Origin: Candidatus Daviesbacteria bacterium
GTDB lineage: Bacteria > Patescibacteriota > Microgenomatia > Daviesbacterales > UBA10151
Length of the DNA stretch: 64,000 bases
Assembly (NCBI GenBank): GCA_016176465.1
Contig: JACOXD010000005.1
Coordinates: forward strand, 3,741 to 67,740
Direction: 5' to 3'
Positions within the stretch are counted from its first letter, which is position 1. Every line of letters begins with the position of its first letter. The position numbers and the translations under genes are program-made. This document shows, one piece after another, positions 1,857-43,740 of the stretch. The notes under the pieces were generated by a model. It had not been told where the DNA came from, did no database searches, and saw nothing but the letters and a program-made list of their open reading frames with translations.

Positions 1857-3641
1857 ATGGATTCTAATGACAAAGATACCTTAAACAATTTGCGCCATAG
1901 CGCTGCCCACCTTTTAGCAGCTGCAGTGATGCAGCTTTATCCGAACGCCAAAAGAACGATAGGTCCAGCCATAGAAGATGGATTTTATTATGACTTCGAT
2001 TTTGGAGAGACCAAAATTTCAGAAGAGGATTTTTCAAAAATTGAGAGAAAAATGGCAGAAATTTTGCCAAGCTGGAGTGGTTTTGAAAGGCATGAATTGT
2101 CTGCAGATGAAGCAAAGAAAGAATATCCAAATAATGAGTATAAACAGGAGTTAATAGATGAATTCACTCAAAATGGAGAAAAAGTAACTTTCTATAAATC
2201 AGGTGAATATTGGGACTTATGTAAAGGAGGTCATGTAGAGAATCCTTCTAAAGAAATTGGTGCATTTAAACTTCTATCTATTGCTGGTGCCTACTGGAGA
2301 GGTTCAGAAAAAAATAAGCAGAGCTTGGCCTCCAATGCTGCTCGCATGAAGGCTAAAATGTTAACTAGAATTTATGGTACAGCTTTCCCAACTCAGAAGG
2401 AGCTGGATGACTATCTCAAAATGCTGGAGGAAGCTAAAAGAAGAGATCATCGAAAACTGGGTAAAGAGTTAGATCTATTTGTTTTCTCCGATTTAGTTGG
2501 TGCTGGTTTACCTTTATTTACTCCTAAAGGAACTATTCTAAGAGATAAGCTTTTTGAGTTCTCTGAAAGTTTACAACTTGCAGAAGGATATCAAAAGGTA
2601 TGGATCCCACATATTACTAAAACTGAACTTTATAAAAAGAGTGGCCACTGGGATAAATTTGGTTCGGAGTTATTTTTAGTTAAATCCCAAGAAACTGATG
2701 ATCAATTTGTCCTAAAACCTATGAACTGTCCGCATCATATTCAAATCTATGCATCTAGAAAAAGAAGCTATAAAGATTTACCAATTAGATATATGGAAAC
2801 AACTGTCCAATATAGAGATGAAAAAGCAGGAGAAATGTTAGGACTCTCTCGAGTTAGATCCATTTCTATTGATGATGCTCATATTTTTGTAAAGCCAGAT
2901 CAAATTGAGGAGGAATTTAGAAAAATTATGAATATGGTAAAACAAATGTATGAAGCTTTAAATATGAAGTTTAAAGCTAGATTATCTTTCCGGGATGACT
3001 CGGATAAGTATTTAGGCGATAAAAAAGATTGGGAAAATGCTCAGAGTGTATTAGAGGATGTGGCAAAAAAATTAAAGATAAACTATTTTCTAGCAGAAGG
3101 AGAGGCAGCATTTTATGGACCAAAAATAGATATTATGGTAACTGACTCTTTAGGTAGAGAGTGGCAGTGTGCAACAGAACAGTTAGACTTTGTCCAACCT
3201 GCCAGGTTTGGAATCACCTATACTGATGAGGATGGGAAGGAGAAAACTCCATATTTAATTCACAAGGCACTACTTGGCTCAATAGAGCGATTTTTATCAG
3301 TTTATATTGAACATACAGGGGGTGCTTTTCCTGTCTGGTTATCACCAGTACAAGTAAAAATTATACCTATCTCAGATAAAAACTTAGAATACTCTAGGAA
3401 AGTTATGGAACAATTAAGAGAAAAAAATATCAGAGTAGAACTGGATGATAGAGCAGAAACAATGCAATCTAAAATTAGAGCTGCGCAAATGCAAAAGGTT
3501 CCTTATATGTTAATTATTGGAGGAAGGGAAGAAGAAGCTAAAAAGGTTGCTGTAAGAAAAAGAAATGGTGAAGATTTAGGGGCACTAGATTTAGAAGAAT
3601 TTGTTAATAAATTACAGGCTGAGATTGAATCTAAAAGTTGA
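1857..3641 (+). CDS. thrS: threonine--tRNA ligase
   Basis: 594 aa with the class II ThrRS signatures (…RDHRKLGKELDLF…, HR/GxxxG catalytic core) and a C-terminal anticodon-binding domain. Confidence 0.9.
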   Translation: MDSNDKDTLNNLRHSAAHLLAAAVMQLYPNAKRTIGPAIEDGFYYDFDFGETKISEEDFSKIERKMAEILPSWSGFERHELSADEAKKEYPNNEYKQELIDEFTQNGEKVTFYKSGEYWDLCKGGHVENPSKEIGAFKLLSIAGAYWRGSEKNKQSLASNAARMKAKMLTRIYGTAFPTQKELDDYLKMLEEAKRRDHRKLGKELDLFVFSDLVGAGLPLFTPKGTILRDKLFEFSESLQLAEGYQKVWIPHITKTELYKKSGHWDKFGSELFLVKSQETDDQFVLKPMNCPHHIQIYASRKRSYKDLPIRYMETTVQYRDEKAGEMLGLSRVRSISIDDAHIFVKPDQIEEEFRKIMNMVKQMYEALNMKFKARLSFRDDSDKYLGDKKDWENAQSVLEDVAKKLKINYFLAEGEAAFYGPKIDIMVTDSLGREWQCATEQLDFVQPARFGITYTDEDGKEKTPYLIHKALLGSIERFLSVYIEHTGGAFPVWLSPVQVKIIPISDKNLEYSRKVMEQLREKNIRVELDDRAETMQSKIRAAQMQKVPYMLIIGGREEEAKKVAVRKRNGEDLGALDLEEFVNKLQAEIESKS

Positions 3642-27981: not shown

Positions 27982-29118
27982 GTGTTATGGAATAATCTAA
28001 GTGTAATGGAAGATGTAGAGCGTAATGAAAAATATAAATTAATTACCAGAAATTTAGAGGAGGTTTTAACTGAGGATGAATTAAAACAACTTTTAGAATC
28101 CGGCAGACCACTAAGGCATTATATAGGACTAGAAATCTCCGGTAAAGCTCATGTTGGTTGGGTTTATATGATGAGGATAATTAAGGACTTTCAAGAAGCA
28201 GGAGTGGAAGCAAATATATTACTGGCAGATTGGCATACTTGGTTAAATAAAAAATTAGATGGAAGATTAGAAACTGCCAAAAGATTAGGGAGAGATTATT
28301 TTGAGCAAGCTTTAAAAGCTGCAGCGCTTTGCGTGGGGACTGATCCAGAGAAAATTAATTTTATTTTAGGATCAGAGTTTTACGAAAAAATGGGGAATGA
28401 TTATTGGGCCTTGGTTGTAAAAGTTGCTAAAGCTACAACTATCGCTAGGATGCTTCGCTCAACCACAATCATGGGTAGAAAAGAAACCGAGATTTCAGAT
28501 ACCGCAATGTTAATATATCCTGCTATGCAATCTGCAGATATTTTTGCACTTGGTATAAATTTAGCCCATGCTGGTATGGATCAGCGCAATGTTCATGTTG
28601 TAACCAGGGATGCTGCTAAAGAGCTAGGGTTTGAAAAACCAATTGCAGTCCATCATCATTTATTACAAGGTTTACTACCACCTGTATTAGTTAATGATCC
28701 CAAAACAGGTAAAAAAATTATGGATATTGAGGCAGCTAAGATGAGTAAGTCTAAACCTGATTCTGCTATTTTTATTCATGATGATCCAGAGGAGATAAAA
28801 AGAAAAATTAATAAAGCTTACTGCCCTGAGGGGGTTGTAGAATTTAATCCAATTCTAGATTGGGTTAAACATTTAATTTTCTTTAGTGAAGGTGAAACCT
28901 TAGAAGTCAGAAGACATGCAAAATTTGGTGGAGATATAACTTACACTTCATACGAAGAACTAGAGAAGGATTATGCTAATAAAAAGTTACATCCTTTGGA
29001 TCTAAAAGCAGCGGTTGCAGAATGGTTAATCAAAACATTGGAACCTGCCAGAAAATACTTTGATGAACCAAACAGAAAAGCTGCCTTAGATGAGATTGAA
29101 AGGCTAACTTCCCATTAA
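27982..29118 (+). CDS. tyrS: tyrosine--tRNA ligase, archaeal/eukaryal type
   Basis: HIGH-region variant GLEISGKAHVG, and KMSKSK…FIHDDPEEIKRKINKAYCPEGVVEFNPI… matches the archaeal TyrRS C-terminal block (KMSSSK…DSPEEIR.KI.KAYCPAG in M. jannaschii), not the bacterial TyrRS/TrpRS. Confidence 0.7.
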   Translation: MLWNNLSVMEDVERNEKYKLITRNLEEVLTEDELKQLLESGRPLRHYIGLEISGKAHVGWVYMMRIIKDFQEAGVEANILLADWHTWLNKKLDGRLETAKRLGRDYFEQALKAAALCVGTDPEKINFILGSEFYEKMGNDYWALVVKVAKATTIARMLRSTTIMGRKETEISDTAMLIYPAMQSADIFALGINLAHAGMDQRNVHVVTRDAAKELGFEKPIAVHHHLLQGLLPPVLVNDPKTGKKIMDIEAAKMSKSKPDSAIFIHDDPEEIKRKINKAYCPEGVVEFNPILDWVKHLIFFSEGETLEVRRHAKFGGDITYTSYEELEKDYANKKLHPLDLKAAVAEWLIKTLEPARKYFDEPNRKAALDEIERLTSH

Positions 29119-33247: not shown

Positions 33248-33919
33248 GTGGCAACTAAGAGAAAAATAGTTTTTATTAACAATGGTTTCTATCATGTTTT
33301 CAACAGGGGAATAGAGAAAAGACCAATATTTACTAATCAATGGGAATTAAAAAGAGCCGAAGAGCTAATGAAATTTTACCAATATCAAAATACACCCATT
33401 AGATTCTCTCAGTTTAACCTTCTTTCAAAAGAAAGGCAGCAAGAAATTTGGGAAATTATTTCTACAAGCAAAAAATTAATTGAAATAATCTGTTTCTGCT
33501 TCATGCCCAATCATTTTCACTTTTTATTAAAACAATTAGAAGATAAAGGTGTCGCTACCTTTATAGCAAATTTTACAAATGCTTATACCAAATATTTTAA
33601 TACTAGATACCAAAGAATAGGTCCTTTATTTGAAGGAGTGTTCAAAGCAGTATATGTAGAAACTGATGAGCAACTAATTCACCTTTCTCGATATATCCAC
33701 CTTAACCCAGTCTCATCGAGTCTAATTGAAACTAGTAAGCTCGAAAACTATGTTTGGTCTTCCTATCCCAACTATTTAACTAACAAAAATGATAATATTA
33801 TTGAAAGAAAACTTATCTTAAGCTTCTTTAAATCTGTGGCTGAATATAAACGATTTGTTCTTGACCAAGCCAGTTATGCTAGAGAATTAAATAAAATTAA
33901 GCATAAAATACTAGAATAG
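33248..33919 (+). mobile_element. IS200-like / REP-associated tyrosine transposase (RayT-like, HUH Y1 family)
   Basis: GFYHVFNRG, the HUH motif MPNHFHFLL, and the catalytic Tyr in RYIHLNP. It is flanked by inverted copies of a GC-rich hairpin rather than by IS200/605 ends plus tnpB. Confidence 0.7.
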
Positions 33920-35547: not shown

Positions 35548-35973
35548 ATGCCAGTAAAAGTAAGATTAATGCGAATAGGTACTAAAAAACACCCATTTTA
35601 CAGGATAGTTGCAGTGGATGAAAGACATAAAAGAACAGGTGGATATTTGGAGCTTTTAGGCACATATAACCCTATTAGCAAACCTAAAGAGATTAAGCTG
35701 GATCAAAAAAAGATCGATGAGTGGATTAAAAAAGGAGCCCAAATGTCAGAGGGGTTTTTAAGAATAATTGGCAAGGCTCCAAAACACCCTCCTAAACCTC
35801 CAAAGAAACAAAAGAAAGAAGCAGCAGTTGAGGCTACTCCTGAAGCAGCGTCTACTGAAGTGCCAAAAGTTCAAGAGGTTTCAACAGAAGAGGTTAAACC
35901 TCAAGAAGAAATAGCACAAGAGTCTACACAACAAGAGGAATCCAAAACCACTGATAAAACAGAACAAAGCTAG
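35548..35973 (+). CDS. rpsP: 30S ribosomal protein S16 with a K/E-rich C-terminal extension
   Basis: MPVKVRLMRIGTKKHPFYRIVA…. Confidence 0.85.
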   Translation: MPVKVRLMRIGTKKHPFYRIVAVDERHKRTGGYLELLGTYNPISKPKEIKLDQKKIDEWIKKGAQMSEGFLRIIGKAPKHPPKPPKKQKKEAAVEATPEAASTEVPKVQEVSTEEVKPQEEIAQESTQQEESKTTDKTEQS

Positions 35974-36039
35974 ACTGGACGATTTTGCAGATTCGACTAT
36001 TTAAACTGAAAAAGTTAAGTCAAAATCTGTCCAAAAAAA
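35974..36039. repeat. family-4 palindromic upstream element, copy B
   Basis: ACTGGACGATTTTGCAG…AAGTTAAGTCAAAATCTGTCCAAAAAAAA, ending at the ATG of the KH-domain gene. Confidence 0.65.
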
Positions 36040-36297
36040 ATGAAAGATTTAATAGATTATATTGTTAAAAGTATTGTAACCAAGCCTGAAGCAGTATCAA
36101 TAGAAGAAATTAAAGATGAATCAGGAATTATTTTGAGACTAACAGTTGATCCAACTGATATGGGAATAGTAATTGGGAAAAGCGGACAAACTATCCAAGC
36201 CCTTAGAAAAATCTTAACTGTTAGGGCAATGGCAGAAAATTCAAAAGTAAATTTACAGCTTATAGAAACAGAACAACCTCAAAAAACTGAGGAATGA
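36040..36297 (+). CDS. KH-domain RNA-binding protein (YlqC/UPF0109-like)
   Basis: …GIVIGKSGQTIQALR… in the conserved rpsP-KH-(rimM)-trmD context. Confidence 0.7.
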   Translation: MKDLIDYIVKSIVTKPEAVSIEEIKDESGIILRLTVDPTDMGIVIGKSGQTIQALRKILTVRAMAENSKVNLQLIETEQPQKTEE

Positions 36298-36974
36298 AAA
36301 TTTCAGTCATTACTCTTTTCCCAGAAATCTTTCCCCAAGTATTAGATTCTAGTATTTTAGGCAGAGCTCAAAAAAAAGGTAAATTAGCTATTGAATATAT
36401 AAATTTAAGGAATTTTGGGGAAGGAGCTCATAAAGTAGTAGATGGAAGACCATATGGAGGGGGGGTTGGAATGGTTTTAAAGGCAGATATTTTAGCCAAA
36501 GCTTGGAAGTCCATTGTTCAAATAAAAGACTATCAACCATGGACCGCATTGATGTCGGCATCAGGGAGTCCTTTTTCTCAAAAAAAAGCCAAGCGCTTAT
36601 CCAAGCTTAAACATTTAATAATTGTTTGCGGACACTATGAGGGAGTGGATCAGCGTTTTATTGAAAACTACATTGATGAGGAAATATCAATTGGAGATTA
36701 CATATTGACTGGAGGAGAATTACCAGCAATGGTAGTTATCGATACCCTTGTAAGGTTAATTCCAGGAGTTTTGGAAAAAGAAGATGCAGTAAAGTTTGAA
36801 AGTTTTGAAAAAAATCTGCTGGAAGGACCACAATACACCAGACCAGAGGAATTTGAAAAATTAAAAGTTCCGAAAGTTTTATTATCAGGTAATCACCAAG
36901 AAATTGCTAAGTGGAGAAAAGAAAAATCTTTAGAGAAAACTAAAAAAATAAGACCTGATTTGTTAAAAAAATAA
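36294..36974 (+). CDS. trmD: tRNA (guanine37-N1)-methyltransferase
   Basis: MKISVITLFPE…, the SPOUT fold, and operon context. Confidence 0.85.
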   Translation: MKISVITLFPEIFPQVLDSSILGRAQKKGKLAIEYINLRNFGEGAHKVVDGRPYGGGVGMVLKADILAKAWKSIVQIKDYQPWTALMSASGSPFSQKKAKRLSKLKHLIIVCGHYEGVDQRFIENYIDEEISIGDYILTGGELPAMVVIDTLVRLIPGVLEKEDAVKFESFEKNLLEGPQYTRPEEFEKLKVPKVLLSGNHQEIAKWRKEKSLEKTKKIRPDLLKK

Positions 36975-36981
36975 TATTTTT

Positions 36982-37009
36982 TTGACAAATGTAGAAAATT
37001 TGATATAAT
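36982..37009 (+). promoter_or_regulatory. near-consensus sigma-70 promoter for the trp operon (TTGACA-N16-TGaTATAAT)
   Basis: TTGACA at 36982-36987 and an extended -10 TGATATAAT at 37001-37009. Confidence 0.6.
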
Positions 37010-37011
37010 AG

Positions 37012-37357
37012 TTATTACAATTTAATACTTAAATGCGTTGATCTGGATGGTTGGAACCAGGGAGCTGAGCAGCAAATCCCACTTCGTTAAAGCTACGAGG
37101 GATGAATATGCTACAGAGACGAAACTGTAAAAGAAAGTAACATGTGTCGAAGATTCGGAGCATGTCATGAATAAGGCTAATTATTCTGATAAGCTCGCAA
37201 AAGCGAGTTTTTTAATGGAAAATTAGCAGTACAAGGTGGCACAGTCATAAAAGGCCCTTGTTAGATCATCAAGTCTGGTGATTTAGCAAGGGCTTTTTAC
37301 GTCCGAAGGAGGCAAGGTTCTGGCAACAGACAGGTTCTTATTTTAAAAAGGAAATAT
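37012..37357 (+). promoter_or_regulatory. about 345-nt structured leader of the trp operon with two terminator-like hairpins (T-box-like or other riboswitch/attenuator)
   Basis: Hairpins CTCGCaaaaGCGAG+T6 (37194-37213) and AGGCCCTTG…CAAGGGCT+T5 (37252-37299). AATTAGCAGTACAAGGTGGCAC just 5' of the terminator resembles the T-box box. UGG-A triplets sit in the 5' stem region. No Trp-rich leader peptide is present. Confidence 0.4.
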
Positions 37358-38734
37358 ATGAATTTACCTAAAGTAGTCATTAAGGATAAACCAAAATACA
37401 TCAAGTTTGCAGAAAACTTAGATTTTTTTGAAGTTTTTAAAAAGATCGAGCAAAATTTTGATACATGTTTTATTTTCGAGTCCCTTGGTGAAGAGGGAAA
37501 GTTTTCTCGCTACTGCCTAATCGGTTTTAATCCTACTCATATTATTTCTGGCAGAGAAAATAATTTATTTATTGATGGCAAAAAATTTCCGGTTAAAAAT
37601 CCTTATTTTGCTTTGAGAGAAATTATGCCGACTAATGTAATTTCTAGAAATTATGCTGGAGGATTAATAGGATATCTAAGTTATGAGGCAGTTAACTTTT
37701 TTGAAAGTTCGCTAAATATTAAAATTCATGACTCATTTGACCAATTTATGTTTGGTGTTTATATGGATGGACTAATTTTAGACAAATTAACTAATGAGCT
37801 TTTTTATTTTTTTTATGAAAAAAATAGATTAGGGGATTTAGAAAAATCTATTAATTCAAAAATTAAAAAAATTAAATTAAAGGTAAAGTTCATAAAAGAT
37901 GACCTAACAAAAAAACAACACCAAAAAATTGTTGAAAAAGTTAAGATGCAAATTATTGCGGGCAATACTTTTCAATGCGAAGTGGGTTTTAAAAGTAAGT
38001 ATCAAATTGAGGGTGACAGCTTAGAAATTTATCAAAAACTAAGAGAAATGAATCCATCTCCTTTTATGTATTATTTAAAGTTCGCTGATGAGCGAAGCTC
38101 CTCTGCTATGCAGAGTAAAAAAATAATTGGTGCATCTCCTGAGCTACTTTTTTCTTTAAGAAGCGGCGAGATGGCAACTAGACCCTTAGCAGGTACCATC
38201 AAAAGAGGAGCAACAGAAAAAGAGGATCAAGAATTAGCAAGACAGTTATTAAATGACCCAAAGGAAATTGCAGAACATAATATGTTGGTGGATCTCCATC
38301 GAAATGATATTGGCAGAGTAGCTAAATTTGGCACTGTACGAATTAGGGATCTAATGACTATAAAGAAATTTTCTCATGTCCAGCACATCTCTTCGGAAAT
38401 AAATGGCCTTATTTCCCCAAAAGAAGATATGTTTACATCCCTAGCCAGTAACTTTCCTATGGGTACAGTTTGTGGAACTCCTAAAGTAGAAACTATTAAG
38501 ATCATTGATTCAAATGAAAGAGAGGCAAGAGGGCCTTATGGAGGCGGGGTTGGACATTTTGGCTTTAACGGGGATTGTACCTTTGCCCTCGCTTTGCGTT
38601 CATTATTTATTAGTGGAAACTTAGCTTTCACCCAAACATCTGGTGGAATAGTTTATGATTCAAAACCGGAAAAAGAGTATGAAGAGATTGAAAGAAAGTT
38701 AGCAGCAATGAAAAAGGTTTTAAATAGTTTATGA
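37358..38734 (+). CDS. trpE: anthranilate synthase component I
   Basis: Chorismate-binding C-terminal block (…LAGTIKRGAT…HNMLVDL…GPYGG…). Confidence 0.8.
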   Translation: MNLPKVVIKDKPKYIKFAENLDFFEVFKKIEQNFDTCFIFESLGEEGKFSRYCLIGFNPTHIISGRENNLFIDGKKFPVKNPYFALREIMPTNVISRNYAGGLIGYLSYEAVNFFESSLNIKIHDSFDQFMFGVYMDGLILDKLTNELFYFFYEKNRLGDLEKSINSKIKKIKLKVKFIKDDLTKKQHQKIVEKVKMQIIAGNTFQCEVGFKSKYQIEGDSLEIYQKLREMNPSPFMYYLKFADERSSSAMQSKKIIGASPELLFSLRSGEMATRPLAGTIKRGATEKEDQELARQLLNDPKEIAEHNMLVDLHRNDIGRVAKFGTVRIRDLMTIKKFSHVQHISSEINGLISPKEDMFTSLASNFPMGTVCGTPKVETIKIIDSNEREARGPYGGGVGHFGFNGDCTFALALRSLFISGNLAFTQTSGGIVYDSKPEKEYEEIERKLAAMKKVLNSL

Positions 38735-39336
38735 GAATTTTACTAATTGATAATTATGATTCTTTTACTTTCAATCTTTACCAGTATCTGGGAGAGATTT
38801 TAACTGCTGCAAACTTAGATTTTCAAATTGATGTTATTAGAAATGATGAATTAACTCTTGATGAAATAAAAAGTAGGGACTATCAAAAAATTATTATCTC
38901 TCCTGGACCAGGAGATCCATCAATAAAAAAATATTTTGGTGTTTGTAGTGATGTTTTAGTTAACCTAAGCAAGGAGATTCCAATTTTAGGGGTATGTTTA
39001 GGAATGCAAGGAATGGCTCATTATTTTGGTGGCAAAGTAGTTCGGGCAAAACTTCCAATGCATGGAAAAGTAAGTTTAATTTCTCATGATAGGAAAGGGG
39101 TTTTTAGCAGCTTACCTCAAGGATTAGAAGTGATGAGATATCATTCTTTAGTTGTTGATAAAAACTCACTCCCAAAATGCTTTGAGATAACAGCAACATC
39201 AGAAGATACGAAAGAAATCATGGGCATTAGACATAAACTATATCCGCTTGAAGGCGTTCAATTTCATCCTGAATCTTTTGCCACAGAAGGAGGAAAAGAA
39301 ATCTTAAAAAATTTTTTATTAAATTATGGAAATTAA
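38731..39336 (+). CDS. trpG: anthranilate synthase component II (glutamine amidotransferase)
   Basis: Catalytic GVCLGMQ and the His/Glu pair. Confidence 0.8.
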   Translation: MRILLIDNYDSFTFNLYQYLGEILTAANLDFQIDVIRNDELTLDEIKSRDYQKIIISPGPGDPSIKKYFGVCSDVLVNLSKEIPILGVCLGMQGMAHYFGGKVVRAKLPMHGKVSLISHDRKGVFSSLPQGLEVMRYHSLVVDKNSLPKCFEITATSEDTKEIMGIRHKLYPLEGVQFHPESFATEGGKEILKNFLLNYGN

Positions 39337-40336
39337 AAATTCAATTAGCAAACTATTAAATAGAGAAGACCTATCAGAAAAAGAGGCAATCTTTTTTATA
39401 GATTCGCTAGCTTTGGGCAAAATTAACTCTTCTCAAATTGCAGCAGTATTAACTCTTTTAAAGATAAAAGGGGAAAGTACTGGTGAAGTTTTGGGGTTAA
39501 TTAAAGGGATGAGAAAGTATATGGTTTCTATAAATCATAGGGATCTCTGTATTGACACTTGTGGAACTGGAGGAGATGGGGCTAATACCTTTAATATTTC
39601 AACCATTACTGCCCTCGTAGTTGCAGGAGTTGGTGTTAAAGTAGCAAAGCATGGGAACAGAGCAGCATCGGGTAAATGTGGAAGTGCAGATATCTTGGAA
39701 GAATTAGGTGCAAACATTAGTTTAGATTCAAAAAAAGCAGAAGAGATTTTAAATGATTTAAATTTTACCTTTTTATTTGCTCCACTCTATCACCCAGTGA
39801 TGAAAATTCTTAGTCCAATAAGAAAAGATTTAAGTTTTCCAACAGTATTTAATTATATTGGTCCATTTTTAAATCCTGCAAAGGTAAAAAGACAAATAAT
39901 TGGAGTAGCTAGTATTTCAACAGCTAAAAAGTTAGCAGAAGCAGCTAAACATTTAGGTTACGAATATCTACTAATCATTAGCAGTAAGGATGGGTTGGAT
40001 GAAATTAGTTTAGGAGAAAAAACCGAAGGCTATGAAATTAAAGGAACTAAAATGAAAAAAATTATTATTGATCCATCAAGGTTGGGTTTTAAAAAAAGTC
40101 CTTTAAAGAATATCCAAACCAAAAGTATAGAGGAAAATAAAAAAATATTAACGGATATTTTAAATGGTAAACATGGTGATTGTCGTGATGTTGTTTTAGT
40201 AAATAGTGCTTATGCGTTATTGGTATCAGGTAAATCACAAACTCTAAAAGAAGCTTTGCAACTTGCTTCTGAGTCAATAGATTCAGGAAAAGCCCTAAAA
40301 GTTTTAAATAAATTTATACAAGGATCAAATCAATGA
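39326..40336 (+). CDS. trpD: anthranilate phosphoribosyltransferase
   Basis: …DTCGTGGDGANTFNIST…KHGNRAASGKCGSADILE…. Confidence 0.85.
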   Translation: MEIKNSISKLLNREDLSEKEAIFFIDSLALGKINSSQIAAVLTLLKIKGESTGEVLGLIKGMRKYMVSINHRDLCIDTCGTGGDGANTFNISTITALVVAGVGVKVAKHGNRAASGKCGSADILEELGANISLDSKKAEEILNDLNFTFLFAPLYHPVMKILSPIRKDLSFPTVFNYIGPFLNPAKVKRQIIGVASISTAKKLAEAAKHLGYEYLLIISSKDGLDEISLGEKTEGYEIKGTKMKKIIIDPSRLGFKKSPLKNIQTKSIEENKKILTDILNGKHGDCRDVVLVNSAYALLVSGKSQTLKEALQLASESIDSGKALKVLNKFIQGSNQ

Positions 40337-41745
40337 CTATTTTAGATCAAATTGTTATCAACAAATTAGAAGAGATCAAAGTTACTAAGAAAAAATATCC
40401 TTTGCATAAAGTTGCCGGCATATCTAATAAGGGGCGGCGATTTTTGAAATCGATAGAAAATCCCAAGGATGGAGATATTGCATTCATTGGGGAAATAAAA
40501 CTAGCATCTCCATCAGTCGGAGTGTTGGGAAAAAGAGGAGATATTATTAAAAAGGCAATCCAGTATGAAAATGCCAACCTTGATGCAATTTCTGTTGTTA
40601 CAGATAAAAAGTACTTTAAAGGGGAAGTAAGTTTTATTAAAAATATAAAATCAATTAGTAAAATCCCTATTTTAGCAAAAGACTTTATCCTAAACCCTTA
40701 CCAGATTTACCAAATGAAATTATCAGGAGCTGATGCGATCCTTTTAATAGTCAAGATTCTTAATGAAAAAACTTTAAATAACTTCGTAAACTTATCAATG
40801 AAACTAGGATTAGAGCCTGTTGTGGAAGTAAATGATAAGGAGGAACTCAAGGCTGCAGCGAAAACAAAGGCAAAATTAATTGCGATAAATTCAAGAAACT
40901 TGAATAATTTTAAAATTGATATTGATAAAGCTTGTAGGTTGGGAAAATTGATTCCTAAAGGTAGGTTATTTTTAGCATTTTCCGGTGTTAAAAGTAGAGA
41001 AGAGATAAAAAAATATAAAAAGTCCGGGGCAAAAGCCGTTTTAGTCGGAACAGCATTAATGAAAGCAACTAATCCGAAAGATTTGATACAAAGTTTAAAA
41101 GGGATACAAAAGCCAAAAATTAAAATTTGTGGAATTAAAACAATTAAAGAGGCCAAATTGGCGATCAGTGCAGGAGCAGACTATTTAGGCTTTATTTTTG
41201 TACCAAGCTCTAAAAGATTTATCAAACCAAGGAGGGCAAAACAAATTATAAAGAGGTTAAAAGGAGTAAAAATAGTTGGTGTTTTCCAAAATCAACCGCT
41301 AGATTATGTAAACTTTGTTGCAAAAGATTTAAATCTGGACTTTGTGCAACTCCATGGAAACGAAGATGGAGGCTATACTTCAAAGATAAATAAGAAGGTA
41401 ATCAAAGTTTTTGTAATTAAACCAGAGGATAATGCCAATAAATATGGTCCCATAATGAGAGCGTACAAAGTAGATTATTTTATGATTGATCGCCCAAAAA
41501 ATAAGGTAACCTTTTCTGCGAATAAAAAAACAATTTTTAATCCTCTGGATATTAAAAAATTACAAGAAAAAATTAAAACACCAATATTTTTATCAGGTGG
41601 ACTAAATTCTAATAATATACAAACTTTTCTTTCGGATTTTGTACCTTTTGCGCTAGATGTTTCATCTGGTGTTGAAACTGATGGAATTAAAGATCCAGTC
41701 AAAATTAATCAGTTCATAAAAAATGCCAAAGGAAAAGCAACATGA
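40333..41745 (+). CDS. trpCF: bifunctional indole-3-glycerol-phosphate synthase / phosphoribosylanthranilate isomerase
   Basis: N-terminal IGPS barrel (…[10 protein letters not shown]…) fused to a C-terminal PRAI (KIKICGIKT…GADYLGFIF). Confidence 0.75.
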
Positions 41746-42968
41746 GAAAAATTGGTCACTTTGGAAAATTTGGAGGAAGATATGTTCCGGAAATGCTAAT
41801 GCCGGCCTTAGAGGAGCTAGAAAGCACTTACGAGAGTGCAAAAAAAGACAAAGATTTTCAAAAAGAATTTAAAGAATTATTGAGAAACTTTTCCGGAAGA
41901 CCAACTCCTTTAACATATGCTGCAAATTTAACTGAAAAATTAGGGGGAGCAAAAATATATTTAAAAAATGAAGGGTTAAATATCACTGGTGCCCATAAAA
42001 TTACACACTGTATTGGTCAAGCAATGCTTGCTAAAAAAATGGGTAAGAAAAGATTGATTGCTGAAACAGGAGCAGGACAGCATGGGTTAGCAACTGCAAC
42101 TGTGGCAGCTAAATTTGGGTTTGAATGTAGTGTTTATATGGGTGAAGAGGATATTAAGAGACAACGACCTAATGTTTTTTTAATGGAGAGACTAGGAGCA
42201 AAAGTAATTCCAGTTAGTTTTGGTAGCAAAACCTTAAAAGACGCTGTTAATGCTGCATTAAAAGATTATATTGAAAATGTAAAAACTTCTCATTATCTTT
42301 TGGGTTCTGTTGTTGGTCCCCATCCTTATCCAACTATGACTAGAGATTTTCAATCTATAGTTGGTAAAGAAACGAAAAAACAAATTAAAAAGTTAGAGGG
42401 AAAATACCCTGATGTTATTATTGCTTGCGTAGGTGGGGGGAGTAATGCCATGGGAATTTTCTATGATTTTATTAAAGAAAAAGAGGTCAATTTAATTGGT
42501 GTTGAAGCAGGAGGAGTTGGTGATAAAATTGGTGAGCACTCAGCTAGATTTAAAGGGGGATCCATTGGGGTAGTTGAAGGATTTAAGTCGTATTTTTTAC
42601 AAGATAAAGATGGACAATTACAAAAGACTCATTCTATTTCAGCCGGTTTAGATTATGCTGGAGTTGGACCAGAACTTGCTTATCTGCAAGAAACTAAAAG
42701 AGTACAGTTTCAATCCATTACCGATCAAGAAGCACTAAACGCTTTTGATTTACTCGCAAGAGTTGAGGGAATTATACCAGCTTTGGAATCTGCTCATGCA
42801 CTTGCCTTTGCAATAAAAATTGCTCCAAGGCTAGAAAAGCAAAAAATTATTGTGGTTAACTTATCAGGAAGAGGGGATAAAGATTTATTTATTGTAGCCA
42901 AAGCATTCAAAGATAAAACCTTTAAAGAGTTTTTACTAGATTACACTAAATTCTATGAACAATATTGA
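41742..42968 (+). CDS. trpB: tryptophan synthase beta chain
   Basis: PLP-lysine motif …[10 protein letters not shown]… and GGGSNAMG. Confidence 0.9.
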
Positions 42969-43740
42969 TAAAAAAATAAATCAGCTTAAAAAGGAAAGCC
43001 GGATGGGTGTAATGACTCATGTAGTAGTAGGTTATCCAAGTTTAAAGGAAACCTCGCAATTAGTTTTATTGATGAGCAAGTGTGGAGTGGATTTTATAGA
43101 GCTACAAATTCCTTTTTCAGATCCCTTGGCTGATGGTCCAACTATTATGAAAGCCTGTGAGAAATCCCTACATAATGGAACAAAAATAAAGGATGCAATG
43201 AGAATTGCCAAGGATATCTCCAGTAAAATTAATAATCCACTAATATTTATGGCTTATTTTAATAATATTTTTAAATATGGCGTTAAGAAGTTTTGTCAGG
43301 ATGCTAAAAGTGCAGGGATATCTGGGTTGATTGTTCCTGATATACCTCCTGAAGAGGAAGAGTGCGAGTGCTTGAGGCATTTTGCGAAAAAGATGGGTCT
43401 TTATTTTATACCTGTTCTATCACCGGTCTCAACTATAAAGCGAATTAAAAAAAACTTAAAAAAAGGTGAGGGATTTGTTTATTGTACTGCCAAGCAAGGA
43501 ACGACCGGAGTTTCGCAAACATTGAATTTAGAAAGCTTACAATACTTAAAAAAGGTCAAGAAAATCTCAAAGGTTCCTATTGCGCTAGGATTTGGAATCT
43601 CTTCAAGAAAACACTTGCAACAAATTAAAGGAAATGCTGATATAGCTGTGATTGGTAGTTTTCTAATTAATCTAATTGAAAATTCAGAAAATAACTATCA
43701 GAAAAAAATTGCAACATTTTTAAACTCTTTACAAGAATAG
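42955..43740 (+). CDS. trpA: tryptophan synthase alpha chain
   Basis: …[18 protein letters not shown]…. Confidence 0.85.

Follow-up and report, generated by a model that had tools for sequence, protein, structure and literature searches.

Introduction

Described T-box riboswitches are sorted into classes that differ in the domains surrounding the T-box sequence: class I combines a long Stem I bearing an elbow platform with a Stem II domain, class II, which is glyQS, is without Stem II, class III has a short Stem I, a Specifier in a 5-6-nt apical loop, a dependence on Stem II and a mostly translational output, and class IV has a Stem I of intermediate length (PMC10482949). According to a 2020 review, transcriptional T-boxes generally need a long Stem I with a platform, and Stem III is indispensable for the discriminator (PMC7583486). 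In the TBDB database, the short-Stem-I model was applied only to Actinobacteria and to matches of the Rfam model (PMC7778990). Here, we analyse a leader RNA that precedes a complete tryptophan operon, trpEGD(CF)BA, in a 64,000-nt stretch of the genome of a Candidatus Daviesbacteria bacterium (assembly GCA_016176465.1, contig JACOXD010000005.1, positions 3,741 to 67,740; this whole stretch is hereafter the window, and coordinates are its own). This leader is very probably a T-box riboswitch of compact, uncatalogued architecture that controls trpEGD(CF)BA by transcription attenuation. Judged from its sequence, its kind of mechanism, tRNA-dependent antitermination, is a known one, and its architecture is a variant lying outside current models and reviews.

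Bacteria of the Candidate Phyla Radiation (CPR) have a minimal metabolism and few recognisable regulators, a complete trp operon is plausibly unusual for a genome of this style, and T-boxes with a UGG Specifier before trp operons have long been known in Firmicutes. Against this background, the Daviesbacteria genome encodes a full tryptophan pathway that appears to be under the control of a tRNA-sensing RNA, together with a putative second switch on thrS, and standard annotation sees neither switch. We found no literature linking T-boxes with CPR or Patescibacteria, which is weak evidence of novelty given a partial coverage of the literature.

A complete trp operon and its leader

Six contiguous and apparently intact open reading frames (ORFs) have near-full-length matches to NCBIfam models (bit scores are given relative to the cut-off of each model):

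37358-38734, + strand: trpE, anthranilate synthase component I (TIGR01820, 395 bits, below the cut-off of 512; residues 24-455/458)
38731-39336, + strand: trpG, glutamine amidotransferase component II (TIGR00566, 208 bits, cut-off 121)
39326-40336, + strand: trpD, anthranilate phosphoribosyltransferase (TIGR01245, 375 bits, cut-off 199)
40333-41745, + strand: fused trpC-trpF, indole-3-glycerol-phosphate synthase and PRA (phosphoribosylanthranilate) isomerase (NF006945, 334 bits, below the cut-off of 380; residues 2-466/470)
41742-42968, + strand: trpB, tryptophan synthase beta (TIGR00263, 616 bits, cut-off 392)
42955-43740, + strand: trpA, tryptophan synthase alpha (TIGR00262, 216 bits, cut-off 102)

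On the basis of these matches, TrpE, G, D, C, F, B, and A are all encoded and the chorismate-to-tryptophan pathway is complete. An original prediction made on this DNA had described six contiguous trp genes spanning the whole pathway, which is confirmed by the NCBIfam matches and by the overlapping ends of the successive ORFs (4, 11, 4, 4, and 14 nt). It had also proposed a near-perfect promoter and a leader of about 345 nt. The promoter scores 12/12, has a TG before its -10 box and is the sole perfect site within 9 kb, weaker promoter-like sites being found at the level of shuffled sequence (37 vs 33.4); a promoter lies at the equivalent position in the leaders of five relatives (L005, L006, L012, L016, and L023; loci are designated here by L numbers). 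The leader itself measures ~342 nt, folds with unusual stability and has a GC content of 0.40, versus 0.357 for the window.

Relatives of this leader were collected by scanning GTDB species genomes with TrpE, which gave ten loci (from Levy-, Roizman-, Davies-, Nomura-, and Moranbacteria, one Patescibacteria group bacterium, and three otherwise labelled genomes), five of them with a clearly homologous leader. A metagenome search with the three-block pattern AGACGAA...GAATAAG...AAGGTGGNAC returned 18 stretches, comprising 13 true homologues (nine distinct) and five chance matches. The resulting family set consists of 15 distinct leaders, namely the window leader and 14 from CPR genomes and metagenomes. 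These leaders were segmented by hand, every parse reproducing its sequence exactly, and the N-padded alignment was left ungapped by MAFFT; it replaced a MAFFT alignment of the raw leaders, in which Stem I and the insertions were misaligned. From 5' to 3', the family presents a kink-turn (K-turn), a Stem I of 4-6 bp with a 6-10-nt apical loop, hairpins P2 and P2a, an A-rich joiner, P3 (10-12 bp), the linker CAUGAAUAAG, an optional hairpin at the Stem III position, the antiterminator, and the terminator. In the window, the corresponding features are the following (MFE, minimum free energy):

36982-37009, + strand: sigma-70-type promoter TTGACA-N16-(TG)TATAAT with an extended -10
37016-37357, + strand: trp operon leader (MFE -108.9 vs -75.9 +/- 4.3 kcal/mol for shuffles, z = -7.6)
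37035-37065, + strand: Stem I, with the K-turn, a 5-bp helix UCUGG/CCAGG and the 10-nt apical loop AUGGUUGGAA (sequence parse)
37052-37054, + strand: Specifier triplet UGG (Trp), followed by the conserved purine A37055 (UGG plus purine in 10/10 Trp-type leaders)
37068-37112, + strand: P2 hairpin (AGCA/UGCU), at the Stem II position (5/6 pairs covary)
37077-37102, + strand: hairpin UCCCACUUCG-UUAAAGCUA-CGAGGGA inserted in the P2 loop (computed fold)
37113-37128, + strand: P2a hairpin ACAG-AGACGAAA-CUGU, then AAAA (3/4 pairs covary)
37140-37165, + strand: P3 hairpin with a conserved internal U.G / G.A / U.G (UGU opposite GAG; 7/12 pairs covary)
37166-37175, + strand: purine-rich linker CAUGAAUAAG (GAAU.AG nearly invariant)
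37176-37227, + strand: extended hairpin GCUAAUU...AAUUAGC, at the Stem III position (52 nt; MFE -18.3 kcal/mol, z = -4.7)
37231-37261, + strand: antiterminator, with helix A1 ACAAGG/CCUUGU, bulge UGGCACA and helix A2 GUC/GGC (-5.6 kcal/mol)
37249-37298, + strand: intrinsic terminator, a 23-bp hairpin plus U5 (-32.0 kcal/mol)
37347-37360, + strand: Shine-Dalgarno sequence AAAGGA (37347-37352) and trpE start codon (37358), about 50-59 nt past the terminator

The K-turn reads GC-GUU-GA ... GA-GC (37035-37041 and 37062-37065), and both of its flanking helices are kept among the 15 leaders, four of which have a variant 3' dinucleotide (AA or UA). The UGG Specifier, whose presence the original prediction had proposed to check, is thus displayed at the tip of a very short Stem I. 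Further on, P2 adjoins P2a with zero linker, the 8-nt P2a loop AGACGAAA is identical in 12/15 leaders and one base off in the remaining three, and the central G.A of P3 is invariant, its flanking U.G pairs being kept in 13-14 of the 15. The 7-nt T-box bulge UGGCACA (37237-37243) lies between helices A1 and A2, with the T-box core GGUGGCAC at 37235-37242; its last base is A rather than C in the window leader and in L024. All 15 leaders share the motif AAGGUGG.AC without variation, A1 hardly varies, which is expected since this helix belongs to the T-box sequence, and A2 covaries (GUC/GGC, GCC/GGC, ACGG/CCGU). A T-box-like segment beginning with AAUUAG had been pointed out previously: the core GGUGGCAC is real, and the AAUUAG part (37221-37226) turns out to lie outside it, as the 3' strand of the 37176-37227 hairpin.

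Comparison with described T-box classes

By its predicted Stem I, this leader family is closest to class III. Like the ileS leaders of Nocardia farcinica and Mycobacterium tuberculosis (PMC10482949), its members have a short Stem I that is built on a K-turn and lacks the elbow-binding double T-loop platform, a Specifier in the apical loop, little or no linker between the helices that follow Stem I, and a UGGN bulge in a two-helix discriminator. The two nevertheless differ in several respects: the apical loop measures 10 nt in the window leader and 6-10 nt in its relatives, versus 5-6 nt in class III; the long S-turn Stem II and the IIA/B pseudoknot of class III were not recognised, a short P2, a P2a with AGACGAAA and a P3 with UGU/GAG being seen instead; output goes through an intrinsic terminator, the Shine-Dalgarno sequence lying about 50 nt on, whereas class III mostly acts by sequestration of this sequence; and the family would regulate trp, arg, and pro biosynthesis in CPR, when class III regulates ileS in Actinobacteria.

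With class I (Bacillus subtilis tyrS and the trp T-boxes of Firmicutes, represented by RF00230), the family shares a Specifier followed by a purine, the K-turn, the T-box sequence, an F-box-like CCGUAA after a IIA-like hairpin, and a competition between antiterminator and terminator. However, the long Stem I, the internal Specifier loop, the AG bulge, and the distal loop of class I are absent, Stem III is missing in 10/15 members, and the A2 pair beside the bulge is G-C or A-U, where class I has G.U. The class II glyQS leaders resemble the family in being compact transcriptional T-boxes without the canonical Stem II domain, but they are glycine-specific and keep a long Stem I, the elbow platform and Stem III, whereas the leaders described here have no platform and mostly no Stem III.

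Mutually exclusive antiterminator and terminator

The 5' arm of the terminator (37249-37271) holds the 3' strands of both A2 and A1, so that terminator and antiterminator are mutually exclusive. This arrangement is found in every one of the 15 leaders, in which a terminator of ~15-24 bp (-22 to -34 kcal/mol) followed by U4-U8 faces a competing antiterminator with an energy of -1 to -9 kcal/mol, and compensatory changes affect 18 of the 33 helix positions of the terminator. In the window leader, the trpE Shine-Dalgarno sequence sits about 50 nt past the U tract and is therefore left unsequestered by the terminator hairpin, which makes termination of transcription the level of control. Only 2-18 nt separate the U tract from the start codon in several relatives, where sequestration of the ribosome-binding site may add to termination.

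On this basis, a plausible course of events can be proposed. Transcription would start ~7 nt past the consensus promoter, and the nascent K-turn and short Stem I would present UGG-A in the apical loop to the CCA anticodon of tRNA-Trp, while P2, P2a, P3, and the purine-rich linker would keep the tRNA in place and position its acceptor arm. With an uncharged tRNA, the G73-C-C-A end would pair with the UGGC of the bulge and stabilise the antiterminator (37231-37261), hence read-through into trpE; with a charged one, the antiterminator would be left unstabilised and the far more stable 37249-37298 hairpin would, with its U5, end the transcript. The binding of tRNA, the discrimination between its charged and uncharged forms, and the regulation in vivo are the parts of this scheme that we infer from the RNA sequence.

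Two terminator-like hairpins had been noted in the leader beforehand. Both exist, at 37191-37213 and 37249-37298, but the first is part of an insertion specific to the window and not of a conserved attenuator. Indeed, it forms the tip (8 bp, -10.2 kcal/mol, U6) of the 37176-37227 hairpin, whose place is taken by a linker of just 6-7 nt in 10 of the 15 leaders and by unrelated hairpins in four more. Because the enclosing hairpin is thus unique to the window among the 15 leaders, its tip does not appear to be a conserved second attenuator, despite its resemblance to a terminator.

Covariation in the leader family

Standard pairs fill 95.2% of the cells of the family alignment, compared with 76.7% when it is shuffled (none of 500 shuffles reaches the observed value) and 26-46% when pairing partners are slid. 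Compensatory changes are observed in 22 of 40 pairs, distributed over Stem I (5/6, all in its inner helix), P2 (5/6), P2a (3/4), P3 (7/12), and A2 (2/4). A family covariance model, R1, was built from this alignment; searched against the window and 26 loci, it recovered zero members beyond its own seeds. R1 misses the leader of L011 and barely detects the thrS leader described below, which sets both apart as separate subtypes. The former (L011 1055-1335, in front of a Moranbacteria trp operon) is a T-box-like leader with GGUGGCACCGCG and a longer Stem I.

Two tertiary or local motifs were tried and set aside. A pseudoknot between GACG of the P2a loop and UGUC of P3 is sequence-compatible throughout, but it shows zero compensatory change and conflicts with covarying P3 pairs; an S-turn (AGUA/GAA) at the base of P3 was rejected, its strands being out of register.

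A hairpin of the type CCUUCG-YUAAAGCUA-CGAAGG recurs among the leaders, in the window (37077-37102), L012 (3689-3717), L021 (~653-680), and L009 (~3345-3380 and ~3550-3580), where it is inserted in the P2 loop, in the K-turn 3' strand, at the Stem III position, or upstream of Stem I. It was not found outside leaders in ~300 kb of loci. That it is a dispersed repeat was considered and rejected, the window having only weak matches with three mismatches (4 vs 0.9 expected); it may serve as an optional module that makes tertiary or tRNA contacts.

Some loci of the TrpE scan carry labels from outside the CPR, L005 being labelled Methylomirabilota and L006 and L007 "uncultured Gammaproteobacteria". 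Their TrpE is of CPR type (~70% identical), and these labels are probably binning or naming errors; L005 and L006 have the CPR-type leader, and L007 has the TrpR-like arrangement described below. In addition, two contigs from independent Logan assemblies (L001 and L002), which encode the identical TrpE and equal the window from 37155 onward, both start exactly at this position, the start of the P3 3' strand, which may reflect an assembly break at a hairpin or an upstream part that varies among strains.

Evidence for tRNA as the ligand

The triplet at the tip of Stem I and the bulge of the antiterminator change together with the downstream pathway. Ten leaders combine UGG with a UGGC bulge, of which eight precede a trpE operon, one (L019) is cut, and one (L024) precedes a small ORF and a racemase gene. 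Four leaders combine CGC with UGGU and stand before argB (TIGR00761, 186 bits) or before argH (328 bits) then argG, and one combines CCC with UGGU before a cut, proB-like ORF that starts with MKKIIVIKIGSSVL. In each case, the triplet is followed by a purine: UGG-A in the window, CGC-G in arg leaders, CCC-A in the proB-like case, and ACC-A before thrS. The fourth base of the bulge is accordingly C with UGG (10/10), U with CGC (4/4) and CCC (1/1), and A with ACC (2/2), when the remainder of the RNA, including its middle domain, is the same across Trp, Arg, and Pro leaders. Since only the triplet and this fourth base change with the pathway, they point to the reading of an anticodon and an acceptor end rather than to an amino-acid pocket. 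With respect to the acceptor end, G73 is the established discriminator of bacterial tRNA-Trp, whose 3' end is G73-C-C-A, and the UGGC bulge fits this end.

This pattern bears on the nature of the ligand. A small-molecule riboswitch, for tryptophan or another compound, that merely resembles a T-box could be suspected from the high conservation of the middle domain (the AGACGAAA loop, the UGU/GAG motif and CAUGAAUAAG); but this domain is unchanged among Trp, Arg, and Pro leaders, the pathway-linked changes being confined to the triplet and the fourth bulge base, and such a riboswitch is very improbable here.

Premature termination of a trp operon within its leader according to tryptophan status also recalls the Escherichia coli trp attenuator and the TRAP system of B. 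subtilis, from which the window leader differs in having neither a Trp-codon leader peptide nor a TRAP triplet array, the presumed sensor being tRNA charging read by RNA. In attenuation of the E. coli type, a Trp-rich leader peptide would couple ribosome stalling to the choice between hairpins, and the presence of two terminator-like hairpins, together with a very weak match of the Trp_leader model RF00513 at 37142-37216 (16.9 bits vs a gathering score of 41, E = 1.1), could be read this way. Yet the small ORFs of the leader contain at most one Trp codon (in a 30-codon, TTG-started ORF at 37038), with no tandem Trp codons and no ribosome-binding site, and a peptide model leaves unexplained the same architecture with an altered triplet before arg and pro genes; we therefore give this mechanism next to no credence.

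Another conceivable reading is that a protein attenuates or represses the operon, either TRAP-like on triplet repeats or of TrpR type, the RNA being a platform for it. Sister lineages do control the same operon otherwise: L003 (6550-7000), L004 (6480-7000), and L007 (6500-7000) have a trp operon without T-box, a small TrpR-like gene (a match of 48-49 bits to TIGR01321, less than its cut-off), and CTAG-N4-CTAG palindromes that overlap the promoter, resemble the E. coli trp operator, and are followed by two similar hairpins and a U run. The regulatory mechanism thus appears to have been exchanged between sister lineages, since the TrpR-like arrangement takes the place of the T-box in these three. 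In the window, however, both the TrpR-like ORF and the CTAG palindrome are absent from the promoter, (G/U)AG triplets spaced by 2-3 nt form chains of at most two in the leader, and triplet, bulge base, and pathway vary together in a way that indicates a tRNA rather than a protein, so that protein-mediated control seems highly unlikely. The original prediction of a tRNA-Trp-responsive attenuation is thereby favoured, given the UGG triplet, the fit of UGGC, the mutually exclusive folds, and the covariation in 22 of 40 pairs.

The UGG/UGGC member of L024 (1111-1310, - strand) precedes a 52-aa ORF and an amino-acid racemase gene (TIGR00035, 144 bits), which suggests a tryptophan-related role for these two genes.

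Weighing the T-box assignment

Several observations weigh against reading the leader as a T-box. The Rfam T-box model RF00230 is unmatched in the window at its gathering score (93 bits) and in 36900-37450 at E<=10. The distal platform of Stem I (AG bulge plus distal loop, T-loops) is absent in all 15 leaders, Stem I ending in a 10-nt loop after 5 bp, and an S-turn and a IIB pairing were sought in the leader without any being found, no S-turn (GAA/AGUA) being recognised in P2 in particular. The base pair of A2 at the bulge is of Watson-Crick type (G-C or A-U) and not G.U, when a G.U wobble at this place is described as a steric sensor (PMC7583486). The terminator-like 37191-37213 hairpin lies upstream of the T-box core and could end transcripts regardless of the tRNA state. 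A search for a tRNA-Trp gene in the window and all fetched loci found none, and the match between UGGC and G73 rests on what is established for bacterial tRNA-Trp. Finally, the manual alignment was guided by the structure and brings together related sequences, so that the pair statistics overstate independence.

With regard to the first of these points, a scan of the window at Rfam gathering thresholds reported two tRNAs only and no T-box, and a scan of 36900-37450 at E<=10 gave chance-level matches only. The relatives behave differently, RF00230 aligning over its full length, below threshold, to L011 (35.5 bits), L024 (34.2), L021 (30.8), L015 (27.1), L027 (26.0), and L012 (25.9), with alignments that cover the K-turn, the IIA/F-box region, Stem III, and the T-box core. 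In L024 (E = 2.7e-6 in a local search), the model aligns the K-turn, places P2a on Stem IIA and the F-box (CCGUAA vs CCGUUA), and assigns the linker CAUGAAUAAG to the purine string before Stem III, when 65 of 75 Stem I positions and all of Stem II are deleted; P3 has no counterpart in the Rfam T-box consensus. The window leader is probably missed because of its two insertions, at 37077-37102 and 37176-37227. The original prediction had proposed a covariance search with RF00230 as its test and had named the lack of a match, along with a lack of alternative antiterminator/terminator folds, as grounds for refutation. The search gave zero match in the leader even at E<=10, but to judge by this would wrongly reject a T-box here, the leader being a variant beyond the reach of RF00230.

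The same insertions raise the question of whether the leader still works, as it could be a decayed or constitutive derivative of a T-box in which the 37191-37213 hairpin terminates most transcripts or the insertions disturb folding. They are absent from most relatives, the R1 match to the window leader is split at the second of them (73.6 + 28 bits), and the tip hairpin is terminator-like, as described above. In the opposite direction, every conserved element is intact (K-turn, UGG-A, P2a loop, P3 motif, T-box core, and terminator), the insertions fall at two sites, the P2 loop and the Stem III position, that also tolerate hairpins in L008, L019, L021, L024, and L009, and the leader lies between a perfect promoter and six intact genes. 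Decay is hence unlikely, and a T-box acting on transcription is preferred.

A wider claim would be that these leaders form a fifth T-box architecture, found so far in CPR only, which senses tRNA co-transcriptionally without elbow contact and usually without Stem III. We regard it as a serious but tentative possibility, to which we give somewhat less than even credence. Such an architecture would use instead the conserved middle domain, that is, the AGACGAAA hairpin and the UGU/GAG helix, which is undescribed in other T-boxes, and the recurrent hairpin with the YUAAAGCUA loop may be an optional extra contact. If this were the case, bacteria with reduced genomes would have retained a minimal form of amino-acid-specific RNA regulation for trp, arg, pro, and thrS, and a Stem I platform would no longer count as necessary for transcriptional T-boxes. 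The leader family is in this regard a natural test of T-box models, as its terminator output comes without platform and mostly without Stem III, contrary to the generalisations of the 2020 review (PMC7583486), and its model and alignment can be used for T-box annotation across Patescibacteria.

A second, more compact leader before thrS

A smaller version of this architecture appears to precede the threonyl-tRNA synthetase gene of the window:

1679-1705: promoter-like site before thrS
1679-1856: thrS leader, compact and T-box-like (sequence reading and relative L031)
1857-3641: thrS (TIGR00418, 678 bits)

Counted from its K-turn through its antiterminator, this leader measures ~110 nt. It contains a GCGUUGA K-turn, a stem UAGAG/CUCUG whose loop ACUCACCAA includes ACC (Thr) then A, a single middle hairpin (1756-1774), the segment AAUUAAGGG-UGGAACC with its bulge at 1792-1798, and a terminator with U8 (1819-1856) that adjoins the AUG. 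It scores 14.4 bits with Rfam and 6.1 bits with R1. L031, the nearest relative by its ThrRS (74% identical), has the same leader, in which the terminator and the two helices of Stem I show compensatory changes; the thrS genes of four more distant relatives were examined and have no such leader. The small size of the thrS version makes it attractive for structural work and for engineered tRNA-responsive switches. As for the other synthetase gene considered, tyrS (27982-29118; NF006330/PRK08560, 424 bits), it has no T-box in its upstream spacer of only ~75 nt.

Composition and surroundings of the trp operon

The trp genes have a GC content of 0.325, versus 0.360 +/- 0.032 for the 49 other ORFs of the window (Mann-Whitney p = 0.005; p = 0.08 for GC3, the GC content at third codon positions), and seven other ORFs of the window have a GC as low or lower. 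Taken as a whole, the operon has a GC of 0.326, versus 0.360 in the rest of the window. The operon is thus more AT-rich than its surroundings, as had been predicted, if only modestly. The proposal that it was recently acquired as a block is unsupported, since the GC gap amounts to about one standard deviation of the window genes, relatives share both the operon, present in at least seven other CPR genomes, and the slight dip: in six of seven relatives with a complete operon, its GC lies 0.9-5 points below one or both flanks. The same gene order is found in L003-L008 and L011, with TrpE 54-74% and TrpB 65-76% identical to the window proteins. No flanking gene is common to the window and its relatives; synteny was accordingly dropped as a transfer test, the flanks differing in all relatives, and an older movement of the operon among CPR lineages is possible given these unshared flanks.

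In the window, trmD (36294-36974) lies upstream of the operon, the trp promoter beginning 8 nt past its stop codon, and a type IV pilus cluster starts downstream on the opposite strand. A weak IS200-like (Y1 transposase) match is found in an ORF at 33248-33919 (E = 1.8e-8), 3.4 kb upstream of the operon; nusB, rnc, rpsP, a KH-domain gene, and trmD lie in between, so that this ORF does not flank the operon. The rpsP-KH-trmD cluster (35548-36974) stops at trmD without the usual rplS: the usual order of this cluster is rpsP-rimM-trmD-rplS, and the trp operon stands here where rplS usually sits.

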